Shown: piece by piece, positions 29,856 to 45,309 of the stretch
Layout: every line of letters begins with the position of its first letter
How positions within the stretch are numbered: the stretch's first letter is position 1
Assembly (NCBI GenBank): GCA_043823315.1
Contig: JBDRAU010000082.1
Coordinates: forward strand, 1 to 45,309
DNA length: 45,309 nucleotides
Direction of reading: 5' to 3'
Source: a bacterium
GTDB taxonomy: Bacteria > Patescibacteriota > UBA1384 > DTJR01
Translations under genes and position numbers: made by a program
The notes under the pieces: generated by a model
What the model was told of the DNA's origin: nothing
What the model saw: the letters and a program-made list of their open reading frames with translations, nothing else
The model's database searches: none

Positions 29856-32339
29856 TTATACTACAAAGTTTACTATTTTGCCCTTTACAAAAATCGTTTT
29901 TTTAATTGTTCTGCCAACTAAGTGTTTCTTTATATTATCGAGTTTTTTTGCCTCTCCTACGATATTTTCTTCTTCCCCTTCGAAGTTAAGCAAAGCTCTG
30001 AATTTTCCATTTATTTGGACAGAATATATTGGAATTTTTGAAACAACCCTAACTTCAGGCCAACTACTATGAAAGATGGATTTTTCATTTAATTGCAAAA
30101 ACAAAGACTCACTCATGTGGGGCGCAAAGGGCGTGAGAAGCGTAAGAAATTCATTCCACTGCGATTTACCCAGTTTGCTGATGTCGTTATCGTTTGAAAA
30201 CTTCATCAGATCAGATACACCGGTGTTGAATAAGTTCTTTTCAATTTTCTCTGTTATGTTATTTGTCAGCCCTTGAAGATCGGCAGATGAATTGCTTTTT
30301 TGTGGTTTAAAGTTACTATAAATTTTTTCTAAAAACTTTCTTGTTCCTTTTATACCCTTAGTATTCCAAGTAGCACTTTGATCAAATGGGCCAATAAATA
30401 GCTCGTACATCCTCAAGGCATCAGCACCGTACTCATCAACTAACCCATCGGGGTTTACTACGTTTCCCTTGGACTTAGACATCTTTTGATTATCGGGACC
30501 CAGTATCAAGCCAACATTCCTGAGTTTTTTGAATGGCTCCACACTTTTAACTGCCTTTATATCAAAGAGGAATTTATGCCAAAATCTGGCGTACAGCAGG
30601 TGTAAAACCGCGTGTTCTGCTCCACCAATATAAAAATCTACGGGCAAGAAGTATTTATCGGCATTTTCAGAAATCAGCTCATTGTTATTTTTTGGGTCGG
30701 TAAATCTAAGGTAGTACCAAGAGGAACCTGCCCAGTTAGGCATAGTGTCAGTTTCTCTTTTTGCCGGTCCACTACAGTTTGGGCACTTTGTATTGACCCA
30801 ACTATCAATTTTGGCCAAAGGAGATTCTCCATCCCCGGTTGGCTCGTAACTTTCGATCTCAGGAAGCTCTAATGGCAAATCTTTTTCGTCAAGAGGAACC
30901 ACTCCGCATTTTTCGCAGTGCACGATCGGGATCGGTTCACCCCAATACCTTTGTCTCGAAAACACCCAGTCGCGGAGTTTGTAATTTATCGCAAATTTTC
31001 CGTGACCATTATCAATAAGTTTTTCAGTAATTTTCTTTTTGGCATCTTCGGAAGTCAGCCCATCAAATTCTTCGGAATTAATCAAAACACCGTAATCGAT
31101 AAATGCTTCTTCCGGATCTTTTAATTTTAAATTGTTATTTTGATCTTTGATTTTTGCACTTTGAATTACTTCAATTATTTCGATATTGTATTTTTTGGCA
31201 AATTTATAATCTCTGTCGTCATGCGCAGGAACTGCCATTACGGCGCCCGTACCATAAGATTCTAAAACGTAATCGGCAATCCAGATTTTTATTTCATTAC
31301 CGTTGATTGGGTTGATAGCCATAACTCCTTCAAGCTTGACCCCAGTTTTTTCCTTCTCAAGCTCGGCTCTTTCAAGATCAGATTTGTTCTTGATTTTCTC
31401 AATGTATTCTTCGACTTCGCTATAATTTGAGATCTTATCTTGTAATGATTTAACTAATTTATGCTCTGGCGCAAGGACAACATAGGTACAGCCAAATAAA
31501 GTATCGGCACGGGTAGTGTAAACCTCAATGCTACCCGCATTGTCATTGCGAGGAGGCTGATGACAATCAGGCGACGCGGCAATCCCTTCACAAGATTGCT
31601 TTGCTTCCTGCCTGCCGGCAGGCATGGCGCTCGCAATGACATCAAAACGAATATTACTTCCTTCACTGCGACCTATCCAGTTTCTCTGCATCTCTTTGAT
31701 TGCTTCGGGCCAGTCCAGTTCGTCAATATCATCCAAAAGCCGGTCGGCATATTCGGTAATTTTTAATACCCACTGTTTGAGTTTTTTCCTCTCCGCACGC
31801 GTATGGCACCTCACGCATTCACCACTTTGAACCTCTTCATTGGCGAGACCGGTTTTACATGAAGGACAAAAATTTATTTCAATATCGTCTTGATAAGCCA
31901 AGCCTTTTTCAAACAATTTTAGAAAAATCCATTGTGTCCACTTGTAATATTGTGGGTCAGTTGTGTCAATTTCTCGCGACCAATCATACGAATAACCAAG
32001 TGACTTTAATTGCTCCTTAAAATTTTTTATATTTGTCTTGACGACTTCCTGTGGATTCTTTTTGACCTTGATCGCATAGTTTTCAGCCGGTAGTCCAAAA
32101 GCGTCCCATCCCATTGGATGTAAAACATTATAACCCTTCAACCTCATATAATGAGCTATAGCATCGGAGGCACTGTAGCCCTTTGCATGGCCGACATGGA
32201 GACCTTCTCCGGAAGGGTAGGGAAACATATCTAAAATATAATATTTCTCTTTGTCTTTATCTAAATTACACTCAAAAGTTTTATTATCTTTCCAAAACCT
32301 TTGAATTTCGTTCTCTATTTTTTTGTGATTGTATTTCAT
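29856..32339 (-). CDS. leuS: Leucine--tRNA ligase, carrying an in-frame 33-codon repeat-element insertion
   Basis: 827 aa with the HIGH motif (GLHVGHAKGY), the KMSKS motif (QKMSKSKGN), and the CP1 editing-domain entry motif VYTTRADTLFG. Confidence 0.96.
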   Translation of the reverse strand: MKYNHKKIENEIQRFWKDNKTFECNLDKDKEKYYILDMFPYPSGEGLHVGHAKGYSASDAIAHYMRLKGYNVLHPMGWDAFGLPAENYAIKVKKNPQEVVKTNIKNFKEQLKSLGYSYDWSREIDTTDPQYYKWTQWIFLKLFEKGLAYQDDIEINFCPSCKTGLANEEVQSGECVRCHTRAERKKLKQWVLKITEYADRLLDDIDELDWPEAIKEMQRNWIGRSEGSNIRFDVIASAMPAGRQEAKQSCEGIAASPDCHQPPRNDNAGSIEVYTTRADTLFGCTYVVLAPEHKLVKSLQDKISNYSEVEEYIEKIKNKSDLERAELEKEKTGVKLEGVMAINPINGNEIKIWIADYVLESYGTGAVMAVPAHDDRDYKFAKKYNIEIIEVIQSAKIKDQNNNLKLKDPEEAFIDYGVLINSEEFDGLTSEDAKKKITEKLIDNGHGKFAINYKLRDWVFSRQRYWGEPIPIVHCEKCGVVPLDEKDLPLELPEIESYEPTGDGESPLAKIDSWVNTKCPNCSGPAKRETDTMPNWAGSSWYYLRFTDPKNNNELISENADKYFLPVDFYIGGAEHAVLHLLYARFWHKFLFDIKAVKSVEPFKKLRNVGLILGPDNQKMSKSKGNVVNPDGLVDEYGADALRMYELFIGPFDQSATWNTKGIKGTRKFLEKIYSNFKPQKSNSSADLQGLTNNITEKIEKNLFNTGVSDLMKFSNDNDISKLGKSQWNEFLTLLTPFAPHMSESLFLQLNEKSIFHSSWPEVRVVSKIPIYSVQINGKFRALLNFEGEEENIVGEAKKLDNIKKHLVGRTIKKTIFVKGKIVNFVV
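31542..31640 (-). repeat. 99-nt palindromic MITE/REP-like element inserted in-frame in leuS (codons 234-266)
   Basis: The termini GTCATTGCGAGG (31542-31553) and GCTCGCAATGAC (31629-31640) are inverted repeats. The inner motifs CGCGGCAATCCC and AGATTGCT match the intergenic repeat family. Length is 99 nt, or 33 codons: VIASAMPAGRQEAKQSCEGIAASPDCHQPPRND. Confidence 0.85.
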
Positions 32340-32676: not shown

Positions 32677-34194
32677 TCAAATTAAAGATTCATCAAAATA
32701 TTTTGGGCTTTCAAATCCCGATAATTTTAAACAAGTCGAAGCCACATTACTTAATCTGCCACCATTTTTAATTCTAATTGACTTGTCTTGATCAACGATT
32801 ATGAAGGGAACCGGATTATTAGTATGTTCTGTATCAATTCCGCCATAAACGGGGTTCACCATTTGTTCCACGTTGCCATGATCGGCAGTAATAACCAAGG
32901 TAGTCTGAGTATCCAGACAAACCTGCGCCAGCTCTTTTAAGAGAGCGTCTATGGTTGATACCGCAGCTAATGCTGCCCTGAAGTCTCCGGTGTGTCCCAC
33001 CATGTCACCGTTTGCAAAGTTGCAGATATAAAAGTGATAATCAGAATTCTTAATATGTGAAACTAAAGCATTTTTTACTCCCTCTGCAGACATCTGCGGT
33101 TTCTGCGCATAAGAAGCAACAGAAGGGGATGGTATTAACAATCTATCCTCAAGTTTATACGGTGACTGTCTATTGCCATTAATAAAAAAAGTAACATGAG
33201 CAAATTTCTCAGTTTCCGCAATATGAAATTGCTTTAAATTATTAATCGCATAAAAACCTCCAATAGTATTGTCGATCGGTTTTGGAGCGAAGACAGACTT
33301 AGATGGAATGTTTAGTTCTTTTTCGATTCCATAGGGAATAAATGTTATTAAATTTAACTTTACAGTCTTGTTTCTTTTGAATCTATTGAAGTTATTGCTC
33401 ATCAGCGCTTGCGTCATTTGTCTAGTGCGATCAGATCTGAAATTGAAAAATATTAACGTGTCATCGTCTTGGAATCGAGCTGTATTGTTAATTATTATCG
33501 GAGATAAATATTCGTCTGTTTCACCCTCTCTATATGCTTGAGACATTGCGGAAAGGGCGTTTGTGGACTTCCTTCCTGTGCCAAACAGTAAGGCGTTGTA
33601 AGCCGCTAATGTTCTTAGCCAATTTCCTTTTCGGTCAAGCATAACCCTACCCATTATTGTAGCTATTTTGCCACAGCCGTTCTTGTTACAGGCTTTTTCA
33701 ACCTCATTAATCAAGTCGAGCCCATGATATGGCGCATTATCTCTCCCGTCTGTAAATAGATGAAGGAAAACCTTTTGATGTTTTAGTTCGCAGCTTAATT
33801 TAATCAGAGCTAAAAGATGATTAATATTAGCGTGGATACTTGCATCCGAGAGAATACCAAGTAAGTGCAAATTAGTTCCTTTTTGTTTAGATCCCTGGAT
33901 TGCTTCAATTAAGACTTTATTTTTAAAAAAATCTCCATCCTCTATGGATTTATTGATTACGGAAACAGCTTGTTCAATTATGTTTCCCGATCCCAGATTC
34001 ATATGTCCGACCTCTGAATTACCTACCTCATCTCCGGGTAATCCCACAAATGTACCCGATGCCTCCACGGTAGTGTTGGGGTATGTACGAAGCAATTTAT
34101 AAAAATTTGCCGGTCTTGCAGTTGAGACAGCATTACCCCCCCAGCTAGCAGCCACTCCCCAGCCATCCAAAATAATTAATGCTAGTTTTTTCAT
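32677..34194 (-). CDS. gpmI: 2,3-bisphosphoglycerate-independent phosphoglycerate mutase paralog (divergent copy)
   Basis: 505 aa with LIILDGWG, GNSEVGH (catalytic Ser), TDGRD, NFRSDR, FANGDMVGHTG, ITADHGN and EHTNNPVPF. Substrate-pocket motifs deviate: ASIHAN replaces GGVHSH, and VMLDRKGNWLR replaces YAMDRDKRWDR. Confidence 0.85.
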   Translation of the reverse strand: MKKLALIILDGWGVAASWGGNAVSTARPANFYKLLRTYPNTTVEASGTFVGLPGDEVGNSEVGHMNLGSGNIIEQAVSVINKSIEDGDFFKNKVLIEAIQGSKQKGTNLHLLGILSDASIHANINHLLALIKLSCELKHQKVFLHLFTDGRDNAPYHGLDLINEVEKACNKNGCGKIATIMGRVMLDRKGNWLRTLAAYNALLFGTGRKSTNALSAMSQAYREGETDEYLSPIIINNTARFQDDDTLIFFNFRSDRTRQMTQALMSNNFNRFKRNKTVKLNLITFIPYGIEKELNIPSKSVFAPKPIDNTIGGFYAINNLKQFHIAETEKFAHVTFFINGNRQSPYKLEDRLLIPSPSVASYAQKPQMSAEGVKNALVSHIKNSDYHFYICNFANGDMVGHTGDFRAALAAVSTIDALLKELAQVCLDTQTTLVITADHGNVEQMVNPVYGGIDTEHTNNPVPFIIVDQDKSIRIKNGGRLSNVASTCLKLSGFESPKYFDESLI

Positions 34195-35739
34195 TTAGCT
34201 CATCATCGATTTTAAATTTATGCCTGTCATTTCCTTCGGCTTACTAATACCCAAAGAATCTAGGACTGTTGGTGCAATATCAGCCAAAATCCCAATCGGA
34301 TCTTGGTTAAAAAAGTGCTCTTTATTGATGAGTTTCTTTTTCCTTTTTAAACTGCAGTTAATAAATGGGACAGGACTCAAAGAGTGTTCCTTGTTTGGTT
34401 TGCCCGATGCAAAATCTACCATCTCATCACAATTACCATGGTCGGATGTAATAAAAACATCATAATCGTTATGTAGAAGCGCCCCAACGCACTTACCCAG
34501 GGAATTGTCCAAGATGGTCAAGGCCTTTTTCGTTGCCTCAAAATTTCCAGAATGTCCGACCATGTCACCGTTAGCAAAATTAGCAGCGATAAAATTATAT
34601 CCCTTGCTTGATGCTTTAATTATTTCGTTTGAGATTTCTATTACTCTCATTTGTGGAAAAACATCGTAACTGGCTAATTTTTTGCTTGGAATTAAAATAT
34701 CCTCTTCTAGATGAAACTTTGTTCGATTTCCTCCAGAGAAGAAATAGGTTATGTGTGCAAACTTCTCGGTTTCAGCAATGTGAAGTTGACTGAGAGAATT
34801 TTTCGAGATTATTTCGCTTATGGGAAGTGTTAGTGAGTTAGTCTCGGGATTATTAAGTTCTATATTTGAAAAAAGTACGTTCAGCCCGAGGTTGTCATCG
34901 TATGTCGTCATCGAAAAAAAGTTTTGACAAAGACTTGTCCGTTTAATTTCTTTCAGGGATTTATCGACAAATGCTCTTGTAATTTGTACTGCCCTGTCGG
35001 AACGGTAGTTCGTAAAAATCATTACATCTTTTACGGGATCGAAAACCTTTCCCCCTAATGACACAGGGTCAAAGAATTCGTCTGTTTTTCCTGTCTTGTA
35101 ACTATCAGCAATAATATCTTCTGGTTTTACGATGGAGTTTTCCTTTCTTGTAATGGCATCATAGGCTGCTTGGGTTCTGTCCCAATTTTTATCCCTGTCC
35201 ATAGCGTAGAAGCGCCCCATGATTGAGCCGAAAGTTATCAGTTTTCCAACCTCTTTTTTTATTTGATCGAGAAACAAATTAGCAGATTTTTCTCCGACAT
35301 CTCTTCCATCGCAAATAATGTGCAAAACGATCTCTGCCTTTGGTCGAAGGCTTTTAATTATTTTTACGAGTCCCAATAGGTGTTTGATGTGACCATGCAC
35401 GCCTCCATTCGACATCAGAAAAAGCAGATGTACTTTTGAGCCATGATCTACTAAATTGAGTATTTTTATCAATTTAGACTTCTTTGCAATAGAGCCGTCG
35501 GTTATCGATTTAGTTATCTGCGGTAAGTCTTGCAGAACAATTCTTCCCATTCCAATTGTTGTGTGTCCGACTTCTGAACTTCCAAATTCACCCCACGGCA
35601 ACCCAACCTCCTCGGCTGAAGCTTTTAGCAAGCAATTAGGGAAATTTTCTACCATCAAATCAATATTCGGAGTTTTAGCGTTCAAAACAGCATTTCCCGT
35701 AACTTCTGGGGTTATACCAAAACCATCCAATATCAACAA
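34195..35739 (-). CDS. gpmI: 2,3-bisphosphoglycerate-independent phosphoglycerate mutase (canonical-looking copy)
   Basis: 514 aa with LLILDGFG, SSEVGH, NGGVHGH, CDGRD, GRFYAMDRDKNWDR, NYRSDR, FANGDMVGHSG, TSDHGN and EHSLSPVPF. The TTG start lies 18 nt after GGAGGG, so a non-canonical start further upstream (..INKVALLILDGFG) is possible. Confidence 0.9.
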   Translation of the reverse strand: MLILDGFGITPEVTGNAVLNAKTPNIDLMVENFPNCLLKASAEEVGLPWGEFGSSEVGHTTIGMGRIVLQDLPQITKSITDGSIAKKSKLIKILNLVDHGSKVHLLFLMSNGGVHGHIKHLLGLVKIIKSLRPKAEIVLHIICDGRDVGEKSANLFLDQIKKEVGKLITFGSIMGRFYAMDRDKNWDRTQAAYDAITRKENSIVKPEDIIADSYKTGKTDEFFDPVSLGGKVFDPVKDVMIFTNYRSDRAVQITRAFVDKSLKEIKRTSLCQNFFSMTTYDDNLGLNVLFSNIELNNPETNSLTLPISEIISKNSLSQLHIAETEKFAHITYFFSGGNRTKFHLEEDILIPSKKLASYDVFPQMRVIEISNEIIKASSKGYNFIAANFANGDMVGHSGNFEATKKALTILDNSLGKCVGALLHNDYDVFITSDHGNCDEMVDFASGKPNKEHSLSPVPFINCSLKRKKKLINKEHFFNQDPIGILADIAPTVLDSLGISKPKEMTGINLKSMMS

Positions 35740-36726: not shown

Positions 36727-37197
36727 AAAAAATACTTACCCAAAAGTAAATATTATTTTTGGTAGAGTAACTGGGCCTGTTGCTTTTTGAACCAGTTACT
36801 GGGCTTTTCAAATAGCGTGAAAATGTTATTATACTAATATGAAAACATTCTTATTTATTGATGGCTTTTTCTTCACGTTTCCCTTACGGAATGTCTTTTA
36901 AAACCAACAAGCGTATTGTATTAGATTATCAGAAGTATTTTGTCAAAAAGGCATTGCCTCTATTTAAGAAAAAGCCAAAATACTTGCAGATTATTGATAT
37001 AGATGAGGATGTTAAAGTTTTGCATGTATAGAAAGACCCGACGCTCATCACGTCGGGTAAGTAATTTCAATATACTACAAATTTTCGCTAATGTCAACTG
37101 TTTGAAAGCATTAGCGTACCAATTATCGTCTGAAAAATTACCCTTATTCTTCCCTAATGTATCCTCTGTAAAAGGAGGATACATAACTTTATAAAAC

Positions 37198-37560
37198 GTC
37201 ATTGCGCGGTACTCCAACCTGCCCGCCCGCCTGCAGCGTTGCAGCAACTTCGGGCAGGCAATGCTTAAAGCATAACTTTTGCAGGCGGGAACAATCTGGA
37301 TTGCCACACCCAGTAGGACTCGCGATGACAAAGGGAAGGTGTCATTGCGCGGTTGGTTTGTCATTGCGCGGTTTTGGGGCGGAACCAAAACCTAATGTTT
37401 CCTCGAAGCAATCTGTTCAGATCGCCGCGCCAGTAGGCTCGCGATGACAAAGGGGAGTTGTCATTGCGCGGTTTGCGAGTGGAGCGCAAACCTAATGCTA
37501 TTACTCCGCGGCAATCCCTCACTGTTTATATTAGATTGCTTCTCTATGCTCGCGATGACA
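37198..37560. repeat. Cluster 1 of GTCATTGCG-type palindromic repeats (about 4 elements)
   Basis: GTCATTGCGCGG occurs at 37198, 37341, 37360 and 37460. The inverted end CTCGCGATGACA occurs at 37319, 37439 and 37549. Elements span 37198-37330, 37360-37450 and 37460-37560. Confidence 0.9.
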
Positions 37561-40492: not shown

Positions 40493-40703
40493 GTCATTGC
40501 GCCTGCCCACCTTTGGCGGGAGTGTACACACGCGGCAATCTAATTCGGAGCTCAAGCTTCAGTTTGTTTATCGTCATTGCGCGGTTTGGGGGCGGAACCC
40601 AAACCTAATGCGCTTAATCCGAAGCAATCTATGGAGCTCAAACTTCAGCTTGCTTATTGTCATTGCGAGGTAATCCGAAGCAATCTATGGAGCCCAGATT
40701 TTC
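40493..40703. repeat. Cluster 2 of the repeat family, head-to-tail tandem (units about 80, 86 and a partial)
   Basis: GTCATTGCG occurs at 40493, 40573 and 40659. The block (C/A)GCAATCTAaTtCGGAGCTCAAgCTTCAGtTTGtTTATcGTCATTGCG is repeated. Confidence 0.9.
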
Positions 40704-43412: not shown

Positions 43413-43632
43413 GCTACCACCACTCTTATATCGTGTAAATAACTATATCGGCTCTCAAAAGTCCAATATGTTAGCATATGTCAGTAGATTCGCCACACTC
43501 TTGCACTCGTGTTTTTCTTGCTTTATAATTGAAGTAGTTAAGGAGGGTATTGAGGGTAAAAGTCTCTAAAATTTTTCGATATCCCGCCCAAATGTTTAGT
43601 TTGGTGTGGTTTTATGTGCGGTTTTTGGTGGT

Positions 43633-44134
43633 GTCATCCCGCGGTTTATTCTTGTCATTGCGAGCTTTTTCTTCGTCACAGTATGCTTTTTTTCTGTCAT
43701 TGCGAGCCGGTACTCCGGCGCGGCAATCTCACAACCTAGATCGCCACGGCAGTAGCCTCGCGATGACAACAAGGTGTGGTGTCATTGCGCGGAATTTTGT
43801 TGTCATTGCGAGCTCTGCGAAGCAATCTGCTCCGTGTCATCCCGCACCCTCCCCGTGTCATTCTGAGCAACGCGAAGAATCTCTCGCGTATGCGAGCTCT
43901 GGCATTCGCTCCTCGAGTCTGAGCGACCTCGGAGTCGAAGACCAGGGATCCTTATGGATAGATCAGGTTTGCCGCTTAGGAATTTTGCGATTCCACCTCG
44001 CAAAAGCTCTCGCAAACCGCAGGATGACACACAGATTGCCACGTCGCCGAATACGGCTCCTCGCAATGACAACAAGGTGTGGTGTCATTGCGCGGTTGGT
44101 TTGTCATTGCGAGCTAATGCGAAGCAATCTGTGG
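43633..44134. repeat. Cluster 3 of the repeat family: about 500 bp of nested or juxtaposed palindromic elements
   Basis: Core variants are GTCATCCCGCGG (43633), GTCATTGCGAGC (43654, 43696, 43802, 44103), GTCATTGCGCGG (43781, 44084), GTCATCCCGCAC (43846) and GTCATTCTGAGC (43857). Inverted ends lie at 43757-43768 and 44060-44071. Confidence 0.9.
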
Positions 44135-44161
44135 TTTGGTGTGTGTTTGAAAATTAAATCA

Positions 44162-45309
44162 ATGATAAATTTATTGAAAATTGCCTGTGGTGCTGAGCGA
44201 AGTCGAAGCAAAAATTGTGAACTGAAAATTACAAGACAATTATCTTTGATTGTCTTGATTGCCATCACCCTTATCGCCACCCTTACTCCCAATGCCTCTA
44301 TCGCCTCAAGCCAAGTCAACACTACCAAATCCTCCACCGCTGACTGGGATCAGGGGACGAATAATAACTTAAACACCACCTCGGATGAGATGAAGATGAT
44401 GCCGAATCCGAGAACTGCCTGGTACCAGACCGGTGGCACTTGGAACTATCGCAAAAAAATAGTCATTGACCACACCAAAGTTCCAAATACCGACCAGACT
44501 GACTTTCCGGTTCTCATTAACTTAACAACCGACTCCGACCTTGCCTCCAAAGCTCAAGCAAACGGCAACGACATCTTAATAACTTCCGATGACCAAACAA
44601 CTAAACTCTCACACGAGATCGAGTCCTACACCTCCGCCAACGGTGCTTTAGTTCTCTGGGTCAAAATCCCGACCCTCTCCCGCACCTACGACACGACAAT
44701 TTTTATGTACTACGGCAATGCTTCCGCCACCAATCAGCAAAACGCAACAGGGGTGTGGAGCAACGGGTATGCAGGGGTTTGGCATATGGGGGATGCAGGA
44801 CCGACTACTGTGTTAGATTCTACCTCTAATTCCCATACCGGTACCGCAAATGCAGGGGTTACCTTTGGTGCAACAGGAAAAGTTGCAAATGGATTGACAT
44901 TTACTAATACTGGAGGCGTACAAACTGCTTGGATACTGGCAGGATCAGCTCAATTGGATCTCTCTATCTATGTAAATCAAGCAGAAACGACATCAAATCG
45001 AGTAATCTTTGTCGGTGGCAATTCAAGAGAAAATTCTATCTTTTTAGAAAACGGAAATGTGTGTGGCATGATGATCATAGGAGGCAGCGCGTATCAAATA
45101 ACTATAGCAAGTCAAACAACGGGTTCTTGGAAGCGGTATGATCTCACATACGATGGAAGCACCCTGGCAGGTTTTGTAAATGGAGTCCAAACAAATTCTG
45201 CTTCGGTGACAGGCGCAATGACGAACTCCGATTATATCGGAGTGGGGAAAAGCTCAGGTTATTTTAATGGTATTGCAATGAGCGTTGATAATCCAAACAT
45301 CTCCTTCAC
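44162..45309 (+). CDS. Secreted or membrane-anchored DUF2341 plus LamG/concanavalin-like domain protein (5' part; runs off the window)
   Basis: The open frame from ATG 44162 begins MINLLKIACGAERSRSKNCELKITRQLSLIVLIAITLIATL (signal anchor). It continues with WNYRKKIVIDHTKVPNTDQTDFPVLINL...SHEIESY...LWVKIPTLS...IFMYYGN (DUF2341 pattern), then a GVWHMGD...LDSTSN LamG-like region. There is no stop before 45309. Confidence 0.7.
   Translation, partial: MINLLKIACGAERSRSKNCELKITRQLSLIVLIAITLIATLTPNASIASSQVNTTKSSTADWDQGTNNNLNTTSDEMKMMPNPRTAWYQTGGTWNYRKKIVIDHTKVPNTDQTDFPVLINLTTDSDLASKAQANGNDILITSDDQTTKLSHEIESYTSANGALVLWVKIPTLSRTYDTTIFMYYGNASATNQQNATGVWSNGYAGVWHMGDAGPTTVLDSTSNSHTGTANAGVTFGATGKVANGLTFTNTGGVQTAWILAGSAQLDLSIYVNQAETTSNRVIFVGGNSRENSIFLENGNVCGMMIIGGSAYQITIASQTTGSWKRYDLTYDGSTLAGFVNGVQTNSASVTGAMTNSDYIGVGKSSGYFNGIAMSVDNPNISF

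Follow-up and report, generated by a model that had tools for sequence, protein, structure and literature searches.

Results

The present study analyzes leuS, the leucyl-tRNA synthetase (LeuRS) gene, and a palindromic repeat that lies in frame within it, on a 45,309-nt contig (JBDRAU010000082.1, assembly GCA_043823315.1) of a bacterium in the Patescibacteriota (lineage UBA1384; DTJR01), part of the Candidate Phyla Radiation (CPR). The whole of this stretch is called the window below and positions are counted from its first letter. The gene is an intact open reading frame (ORF) at 29856–32339 on the minus strand, encoding an 827-aa LeuRS with Pfam matches to tRNA-synt_1, tRNA-synt_1_2 (the editing domain), and Anticodon_1, with a phmmer match among PDB sequences to Thermus thermophilus LeuRS (1h3n) at E 2.6e-210, and with the HIGH-type motif HVGH and KMSKS both retained. 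In an alignment of 54 LeuRS, residues T275, T276, R277, D279, and T280 of the editing motif TTRxDT were invariant. Codons 234–266 consist of a stop-free palindromic element of 99 nt (31542–31640) encoding VIASAMPAGRQEAKQSCEGIAASPDCHQPPRND (VIAS...PRND), the predicted peptide of the insert region reading, for example, QEAKQSCEGIAASPDCHQPPR. A preliminary description made from the letters alone had reported this in-frame element, with inverted-repeat ends and interior motifs, and its coordinates, open frame, and motifs were all confirmed. Exact 11-nt inverted repeats, GTCATTGCGAG at 31542–31552 (+) and 31630–31640 (−), bound the insert, so that read on one strand its ends are GTCATTGCGAG and CTCGCAATGAC; the inner motifs are CGCGGCAATC at 31575–31584 and GATTGCTTTG at 31594–31603.

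The exact 827-aa protein was found on four contigs. The 2484-nt gene, insert included, was 100% identical in ENA assembly ERZ27247128 (46.7 kb contig) and in Logan assemblies SRR26275509 (25.7 kb contig) and SRR6514274 (4.1 kb contig). Outside leuS, 15 and 14 single-nucleotide polymorphisms (SNPs) separate the 46.7 kb and 25.7 kb contigs, respectively, from the window, and these two therefore represent separate strains and assemblies. Since the same leuS was recovered base for base from three other samples, the insert is not a chimera, a worry that had been raised when it was first noticed.

Judged from its sequence, the insert is better described as an inverted dimer of two hairpins of the repetitive extragenic palindrome (REP) type than as a single palindromic transposon. 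Each unit consists of a (T/C)GTC tag and a basal stem of 5 bp (ATTGC/GCAAT), topped by a small internal loop and a distal stem-loop that varies; in the dimer the tags are outermost. Unit 1, which is 5′ in the sense of the gene (31594–31640, minus strand), was delimited from its motifs and from the covariation-backed unit hairpin, and comprises the head GTCATTGCGAG at 31630–31640, a distal palindrome GCCTGCCGGCAGGC at 31610–31623, and the inner motif CAAAGCAATC at 31594–31603. Unit 2, inverted and 3′ in the gene (31542–31585, plus strand), comprises the head GTCATTGCGAG at 31542–31552, a distal hairpin CTGAT-GACA-ATCAG at 31557–31570, and the inner motif CGCGGCAATC at 31575–31584. The insert folds at −44.3 kcal/mol as RNA (z −2.4) and −26.5 as DNA (z −2.8), and minimum free energy folding gives a cloverleaf for it and for intergenic dimers of the same family. 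A compensatory change from T-A to C-G at position 3 of the stem nevertheless supports the unit hairpin over the cloverleaf. In 138 distinct units from all fetched DNA, the head base (GTCAT[T/C]GCG) covaried with the inner base (GC[A/G]ATC), with 116 T-A, 21 C-G, and a single mismatch (Fisher p = 6e-24, the units being related and the counts therefore non-independent events), and C-G units were present in several lineages, including the window's own intergenic copies. In an alignment of 26 LeuRS inserts (A2), the two-hairpin model paired 100% of cells with one compensatory pair (UA 20, CG 6), a result that none of 500 shuffles matched, whereas the whole-element cloverleaf showed no compensation and had its central stem broken by the same six sequences (six A.C breaks), and it was rejected as the conserved structure. 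The arm that joins the head to the inner motif, although hypervariable in both its sequence and its length, is usually a hairpin; 57% of the 77 distinct arms with 14 nt or more folded better than their shuffles (p ≤ 0.05).

No direct repeat that would indicate target-site duplication flanks the leuS copy or the four intergenic dimers of the window, and the leuS insert has T|GTCAT on both sides. Rfam gave nothing at gathering level and, on the insert, nothing at E ≤ 1, and a group I or II intron was set aside on this result; on the repeat cluster at 37.2 kb it gave two sub-threshold matches only, judged to be chance. An intein would be expected to have about 130 aa or more, Cys, Ser, or Thr both as its first residue and at +1, and His-Asn at its end. 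The insert, of 33 residues, has Val first and Asn-Asp last, the next residue of the protein is Asn, and an intein was rejected. An exact copy of the inner motif, CGAAGCAATC at 31698–31707 (−), also lies within leuS, with 58 nt between it and the insert downstream. The possibility that it belongs to the element was weighed, and it was put down to chance; it encodes the PEAI of DWPEAIKEMQ, a natural variant of the conserved DWPEPIKEMQ, and with an expectation of about 0.09 per window its presence inside leuS is an unexpected coincidence.

As placed by alignment and modelling, the insert is the turn of the first beta-hairpin of CP1, next to but outside the editing pocket. Residues 2–234 aligned by phmmer with residues 3–236 of 1h3n and residues 270–618 with 242–583, the break falling exactly at the insert. 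Directly upstream are the ...GSNIRFD codons (31641–31670, minus strand), the first beta-strand of the CP1 hairpin, and on the other side the NAGSIEVYTTRADT codons (31500–31541, minus strand), which supply the return strand and the threonine-rich editing motif. The TTRADT after the insert aligns with T247, T248, and T252 of 1h3n, which we take to be the editing-site threonines of LeuRS, and 5–8 residues separate it from the insert. An AlphaFold model built with 54 sequences had a mean predicted local distance difference test (pLDDT) score of 87.8 and a predicted template modelling (pTM) score of 0.82, and its sole segment with pLDDT below 50 was residues 240–266, a coil between strands 224–236 and 270–275; V234-I235-A236, from the REP head, extend the host beta-strand 224–236. 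The insert thus modelled most likely forms a disordered, floppy surface loop. The preliminary placement in a variable surface loop before the CP1 editing domain holds, refined to the first CP1 beta-hairpin turn, and the low-confidence coil between two strands is consistent with it.

Across 80 genomes sampled from different phyla, the distance from NWIG to TTRxDT was 30–31 residues in about 60, with most others within a few residues. It is 61 residues in the window LeuRS, and the net gain is therefore 30 aa rather than 33, the length and stop-free frame of the 33-codon segment being correct. Apparently GTC and AAT-GAC, the codons at the ends of the element, take the place of residues of the host loop; alternatively, three host codons were lost. 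The Escherichia coli loop given in the preliminary description, FNVNDYDNT, has residues of the same kind as those supplied by the terminal codons of the element.

Copies of the family are abundant in the window. With at most one mismatch, GTCATTGCGAG occurs 20 times against 0.39 expected (matched in 0 of 100 shuffles), clustering at 37.2, 40.5, and 43.6–44.1 kb, besides the two copies in leuS and one at 21.6 kb that is a probable chance match. Intergenic copies are built from a head, a variable arm, CG(A/C)RGCAATC, a short spacer, GAT(T/C)GCC(A/G)CG, a second variable arm, and a tail, and these shared motif counts and this shared architecture bear out the proposal that the leuS insert belongs to the same family as the intergenic clusters. 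There are five complete dimers in the window, the leuS one included, the intergenic ones being 132, 89, 100, and 72 nt long; GTCAT is preceded by T in most window heads, and by a C at positions 37197 and 40572. The first intergenic cluster (37198–37559, no strand assigned) contains dimers at 37198–37329, 37360–37448, and 37460–37559 and a solo head at 37341. The second (40493–40700, plus strand) contains three REP half units of families D1, D11, and D13, arranged head to tail rather than inverted and each followed by a conserved spacer of about 28 nt, TATGGAGCTCAAACTTCAGCTTGCTTAT. The third, a mosaic at 43628–44134 (no strand assigned) upstream of a DUF2341/LamG gene, contains a complete dimer at 43696–43767, short units at 43802–43827 and 44103–44129, and an inverted unit at 44034–44070. 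It also has other head types, at 43634, 43836, and 43857–43883, of the forms GTCATCCCGC and GTCATTCTGAG...CGAAGAATC.

Two open frames overlap these clusters. An ORF of 142 aa at 36960–37388 (−), situated on the 37.2 kb cluster and annotated as a gene in the ENA record (L002, 4952–5380), matches nothing in Pfam and is almost certainly spurious. A stop-free frame at 43538–45307 (+) runs through the whole 43.6–44.1 kb cluster into a DUF2341/Laminin_G_3 protein and was considered as a second coding case. It was rejected: the Pfam domains begin only at aa 342, and a plausible start and membrane segment follow the cluster. The true start is probably near 44.16 kb, and gene callers could over-extend this gene. 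Between leuS and the clusters are two abutting paralogous genes for cofactor-independent phosphoglycerate mutase (Metalloenzyme and iPGM_N) at 32677–34194 and 34195–35739, both on the minus strand.

The nearest LeuRS homologues (P0002–P0010, 64–69% identical) have a canonical, empty loop of 31 aa, in agreement with the lineage specificity initially suspected, and locus L007, which is syntenic with the window, likewise has an empty loop. A genome scan with LeuRS gave none closer than 54% among the matches listed, and a protein search with an 80-aa segment around the insert gave only short LeuRS fragments without inserts. A more distant homologue, P0048 (locus L001), has a homologous insert of 102 nt with the same codon boundaries. 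P0048 ranks 45th of 59 homologues over residues 38–233 and 59th of 59 over residues 440–660, and is the closest of all (76.6%) over residues 267–330, just downstream of the insert, where the P0002 clade reaches at most 62%. The N- and C-terminal regions of the window gene are closest to P0002–P0010 (80–82%) and the start of the editing domain (267–330) is closest to P0048, P0025, and P0033 (72–77%). Because of this regional switch in closest relative, the window leuS looks mosaic, its insert and CP1 start appearing to differ in history from the body of the enzyme. One ancient insertion shared with P0048 by vertical descent was ruled out by the contrast between the low ranks of P0048 over most of the protein and its first rank downstream of the insert. 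The right-hand unit, REP unit 2, is 86% identical to the L001 insert, and its third codon positions agree at 14 of 15 sites against 10 of 15 for first positions, with flanking third positions 45–50% identical. This is the reverse of what peptide selection would leave; conservation lies in the DNA motif and not in the peptide.

The same loop has been filled repeatedly. A junction pattern (CTCGCRATGAY, followed within 9–36 nt by codons of [FY]TTRxDT), for which a rough estimate of chance matches is a few, retrieved 79 loci from metagenome contigs, about 70 of which are CPR LeuRS genes with an insert of the same family in this loop, encoding peptides of the form VIAS/VIAR...KQS...IA[ST]S...PRND. 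The head, which was outside the search pattern, was exact in 40 of 51 distinct elements. Inserts were 57–162 nt long and all folded well (z −2.6 to −11); their left and right boundaries combined in 21 ways, and the first half was read in several frames (VIAS, SLR, HCE). The head codons were GTC in 43 of 45, ATT in 44 of 45, and GCG in 42 of 45, against host usage of 18%, 54%, and 31%, respectively. Three of the metagenomic LeuRS with a REP insert (L126, L154, L162) have in-frame stop codons just upstream of it and may be pseudogenes, frameshifts, or assembly errors at the repeat.

Homologues gathered regardless of inserts give a similar picture. Eight of the 120 closest have a repeat-like peptide in this loop. 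The ATTGCGAG family was confirmed from DNA in P0001, P0048, and P0116, and the ATTCCCGC family, which encodes VIPAEAGIQ, in P0044; typed from the peptide alone, P0074 and P0111 are ATTCCCGC-like, P0061 is ATTCTGAG-like, and P0046 has another repeat-like peptide. Three repeat-like peptide types besides the window's family therefore occupy this loop in other lineages, one of them confirmed from DNA, and in none of the eight sets of proteins was a recognisable REP found elsewhere in the protein. The GTCATTCTGAG...CGAAGAATC type of the window's third cluster has its own loop insert in P0061 (VILNEAKRSEES). Among 240 homologues gathered in the same way, a strict dimer signature occurred six times in the loop, which is roughly 1% of the LeuRS protein, and twice elsewhere. 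An alpha/beta-hydrolase domain (PF00561/PF06821) occupies the same loop in P0035 and P0204, and low-complexity runs fill it in other homologues. P0258 also has the hydrolase domain, with a canonical loop, so that the domain lies elsewhere in that protein, and dozens of CPR LeuRS sequences have a Nudix domain (PF00293) after residue ~401.

Turnover in the loop was most evident in the Shapirobacteria around L135/P0199, where the loop is hypervariable and about 40% of 120 homologues have the canonical length. Many of these homologues have a loop 3 aa longer that is encoded by a TCGATCGTCGA repeat, and others have further repeat-like peptides. A REP allele with identical boundaries occurs at six scattered positions of the Shapirobacteria tree, and sisters of P0199 that are 92–94% identical have quite different loop inserts. 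Compared with its sisters, L135 has a divergent tract of about 300 nt around the loop and is closest to L097 within it, which looks like the exchange of a short allele. In L167 the loop has TCGATCGTCGA twice (SIVDNRSSIK), and in L168 a palindrome encoding KPFDSFEKLRTKSAQGNSLRE. The loop peptides SRDVxxNVST and NPLSAxADISLxKGD also look repeat-derived, the sequences with loops of other repeats being P0205, P0212, P0230, P0283, P0290, and P0296, and P0214, P0217, P0228, and P0232.

The idea that the family is or was mobile is strengthened by the varied boundaries and frames across LeuRS lineages and by a Shapirobacteria LeuRS (L093/L152, P0288) in which two 100% identical 72-nt dimers lie at two CP1 sites (gene nt 717–788 and 882–953 in L093) with unrelated 5′ flanks and no target duplication. 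These twin copies are the most direct sign of recent copy-paste into coding DNA. The L093 protein also has a REP remnant, PRRDAPRNDE, near its N-terminus. On other CPR contigs, genes for ComEC and FemAB contain copies in frame, and a SAM_HAT_C ORF encloses a REP head. Beyond LeuRS, exact dimers (GTCATTGCGAG-N45-75-CTCGCAATGAC) were present in at least 120 IMG/VR contigs (L169–L288) with a median G+C of 64%, and most of these contigs are therefore non-CPR. By blastn the family was also found on plasmids of the cyanobacterium Aulosira (AP018309.1), the alphaproteobacterium Novosphingobium (NZ_CP017076.1, 18 places), and the gammaproteobacterium Halomonas (NZ_CP040452.1), and the annotated Novosphingobium plasmid region contained no features. 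The family crosses phyla and may travel on mobile DNA. In this unselected IMG/VR sample, dimer lengths modulo 3 were flat (46/51/44) among the matches listed. Together with the intergenic lengths this indicates that the multiple of three in leuS reflects survivorship and not design; the selection for frame-neutral insertions that had been suggested is thus upheld as survivorship and not as a property of the element. The fraction of viral-contig dimers inside ORFs was discarded as a measure because long open frames arise by chance at 64% G+C.

Discussion

The insert and its relatives most resemble the superfamily of CGTC-tagged REPs defined by Di Nocera, De Gregorio & Rocco 2013 (PMC3733652), which includes RPE-4, RPE-6, and the Neisseria dRS3. 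These have an unpaired 5′ tag CGTC, often TGTC (or CCTC), a stem of 8–9 bp that starts A-T, T-A, a loop of 4–5 nt, and a short unpaired 3′ tail with the consensus CCA; they occur mostly as inverted dimers with structured spacers, clustered or dispersed intergenically and with no adjacent transposase (PMC3733652). Intragenic dimers in that superfamily encode 20–30 aa and are found, among others, in tRNA synthetases, including GlyRS-beta and IleRS of E. litoralis (VVPAKAGT...IPASAGMT), and the superfamily has been reported from five phyla, CPR/Patescibacteria not among them (PMC3733652). The leuS family likewise has a (T/C)GTC tag, a stem that starts A-T, T-A with 100% of cells paired in 26 sequences, and inverted dimers (the five complete ones of the window and LeuRS inserts of 57–162 nt). 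In the parts of the window that were scanned, no transposase was seen beside the repeats. The leuS family differs in that only 5 bp of the stem are conserved, beyond which come an internal loop and a distal hairpin whose length ranges from 5 to more than 30 nt, in that the stem is ATTGC(GAG)/(CGAA)GCAAT and not ATTCCCGC, and in that the signatures VIAS, KQS, LAMT, and HCE are absent from the published intragenic lists (PMC3733652). Where the published tail is CCA, copies here have after GCAAT a C and then T or C (CTC, CTG, CCC), which is close to that consensus without matching it. The same LeuRS loop in P0044 carries a CGTC-1-like type (VIPAEAGIQ...SGMT). On these sequence features the family would be a new family-level relative of the CGTC-type REPs, outside all four published CGTC families.

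The precedent first named for the insert was that of the Rickettsia palindromic elements (RPEs), described as in-frame insertions by Ogata et al. 2000, 2002, and summarised in PMC10969869, where RPEs inside housekeeping ORFs are in-frame peptides with which the host protein is considered able to fold and function. As with the RPEs, whose hosts are small-genome, host-dependent bacteria, the leuS element is a palindromic repeat in frame in a housekeeping gene and at the protein surface. Unlike RPE-1, which is about 100–150 bp long, encodes a conserved peptide, and is confined to Rickettsia, the leuS family has variable arms, occurs across phyla, and has hit one loop of one protein repeatedly. 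This comparison is one of descriptions, the link between the two being the placement of RPE-4 and RPE-6 among CGTC-type REPs (PMC3733652). The leuS element behaves like an RPE or a CGTC REP, which is a separate matter from membership of the RPEs. The Rickettsia precedent was therefore apt but too narrow, with REP dimers in tRNA-synthetase genes already listed by 2013.

REPs with a GTAG tag, REPINs, and BIMEs are reportedly associated with RAYT transposases, in work said to be that of Nunvar in 2010 and of Bertels and Rainey in 2011. The leuS family resembles REPINs and BIMEs in having a hairpin with a short unpaired tag, inverted dimers as the likely mobile unit, and no target-site duplication, and the window clusters at 37.2 and 43.6–44.1 kb are mosaics as BIMEs are; unlike in REPIN/RAYT systems, the tag is (T/C)GTC and not GTAG. 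No RAYT, Y1, or IS200-like gene was seen in the scanned parts of the window and of the fetched loci, both of which were scanned incompletely. [quoted passage not shown] In contrast to MITEs, neither the leuS copy nor any of the four intergenic dimers nor the L093 pair is flanked by a target-site duplication, and copies share only short head, inner, and tail motifs, with differing arms and with half units and solo heads common. No insertion sequence (IS) with matching ends was seen in the window parts scanned, and to our knowledge there is no parent IS for this REP family. A description of the family in CPR, or a name for it, was not found in the searchable literature, and string searches with the DNA motif and the encoded peptides returned unrelated primers or nothing. 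The phenomenon itself, in-frame insertion of REPs or RPEs, including in tRNA synthetases, had been described between 2000 and 2013, and it is the recurrent hotspot in LeuRS that is notable.

We consider it probable, with good confidence, that a REP dimer was copied into the DNA of the loop, with the frame kept, the disordered loop tolerated, and the DNA motif maintained at the nucleic-acid level. The elements would be non-autonomous, resembling the CGTC/TGTC-tagged REP superfamily, and would have entered the loop-coding DNA by hairpin-dependent or single-stranded-DNA-dependent copy-paste, the length of the insert keeping the reading frame. The ribosome would then read through the insert and produce roughly 30 extra residues as a disordered loop outside the editing pocket, in which the first codons GTC ATT GCG (V-I-A) would continue the host strand and the last, AAT GAC (N-D), would give turn-type residues. 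The insert would survive because the loop tolerates almost anything and the length keeps the frame, and the peptide would be a passenger, with the nucleic-acid motif maintained by a hairpin constraint or by homogenisation against other copies.

Several observations weigh against this account. Translation of the insert is deduced from an open frame in a conserved gene, and its harmlessness is likewise presumed; there was no presence/absence polymorphism of the insert among the strains sampled, and the copy number of leuS was judged from 45 kb of the genome, so that a second copy is possible. The residual host loop at filled sites is mostly 9–21 nt as opposed to the canonical 30 nt, and filled sites are therefore not clean simple insertions. 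No mobilising enzyme was seen in the window ORFs scanned, which were most of them, the ribosomal-protein genes at ~11.9–19.8 kb being left unscanned. Finally, the hotspot could reflect target preference rather than tolerance, and the high similarity of the DNA motif in the window and in L001 may point to a role played as DNA or RNA, in place of a neutral passenger.

The last of these points leads to an unlikely alternative, that the hairpins act in cis within leuS as nucleic acid and the peptide is incidental; they could form an mRNA segment that paces translation or sets decay, or a DNA site for a REP-binding protein. This would fit with third codon positions more conserved than first, in the REP-derived half, between two LeuRS only ~60% identical, with a head codon choice that departs strongly from host usage, with stems kept by compensatory change, and with the good folding of all inserts. 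Intergenic copies of the family are equally conserved, however, so no link to leuS is needed, the nearest relatives do without the insert, and close Shapirobacteria LeuRS, 92–94% identical, hold unrelated loop sequences. A constraint within leuS would be superfluous if the inserts of the window and of L001 had independent origins or had been homogenised against other genomic copies.

Similarly doubtful is the possibility that the element targets the site, a recombinase or transposase or microhomology in the loop directing REP dimers there, so that the hotspot would reflect insertion preference. The excess of dimers in the loop (six against two elsewhere) would be expected from targeting, as would the identical boundaries F|GTCATT...ATGAC|GTTGAT.AT at six scattered Shapirobacteria positions, and the canonical loop often encodes [VI]...ND, resembling the element ends GTC/ATC and AATGAC. 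Targeting accords less well with 21 boundary combinations in several reading frames, and the unrelated inserts in the same loop, i.e. the hydrolase domain, low-complexity runs, and other repeats, point to a permissive site. There is also no target-site duplication and no conserved flank beyond T|GTCAT...ATGAC|A, which just extends the palindrome, and the scattered Shapirobacteria alleles can be explained by allele exchange, given the divergent tract at the loop of L135.

A broader reading, which we regard as speculative and hold with low confidence, is that the CP1-entry loop of CPR LeuRS is a cassette-like hypervariable site at which several palindromic families are actively installed, swapped, and removed, possibly by site-directed insertion, by exchange of short alleles between lineages, or by both. 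That would amount to more than a passive tolerance of junk. If it were true, turnover might itself matter, for instance by varying what phage, toxins, or partners encounter on the surface near the editing site, and there would be dozens of natural replicates of one insertion event from which to work out how CGTC-type REPs are mobilised without a transposase.

Far less probable is co-option of the loop at the protein level, for instance as a contact surface for tRNA-Leu or a partner, or as a modulator of editing. In favour of this, the threonine-rich editing motif is 5–8 residues away, the insert is fixed in the population across all four assemblies, and P0048 keeps a homologous one. Against this, the segment has pLDDT below 50 and no predicted secondary structure, the arms vary freely among lineages in length (57–162 nt) and sequence, conservation tracks the DNA motif and not the amino acids, and the insert is missing from the nearest relatives. 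Very unlikely, to the point of being nearly negligible, is an artefact or a dead gene, that is, an assembly chimera joining a repeat into leuS or a pseudogene with another leuS copy elsewhere, for although repeats are a classic cause of misassembly and inspection was confined to 45 kb of the genome, the identical 2484-nt gene came from three further samples with different assemblers, on contigs of 4–47 kb with SNPs elsewhere, its frame is open with catalytic and editing motifs intact, and about 70 other LeuRS genes have the same kind of insert in the same place.

With REP-dimer insertion into a tolerant loop as the preferred account, the range of protein-coding palindromes grows beyond Rickettsia and a few Proteobacteria to take in the Candidate Phyla Radiation, here in an essential translation enzyme. 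The findings caution that repeat-derived segments are scattered through the protein alignments and gene calls of CPR, as in the 142-aa ORF and the 43.6–44.1 kb frame of the window. The position in LeuRS is marked as one that tolerates insertions as large as an entire hydrolase domain, and the recurrent loop offers a large set of independent sites, both filled and empty, from which one may infer the chemistry by which REPs without a known transposase insert.

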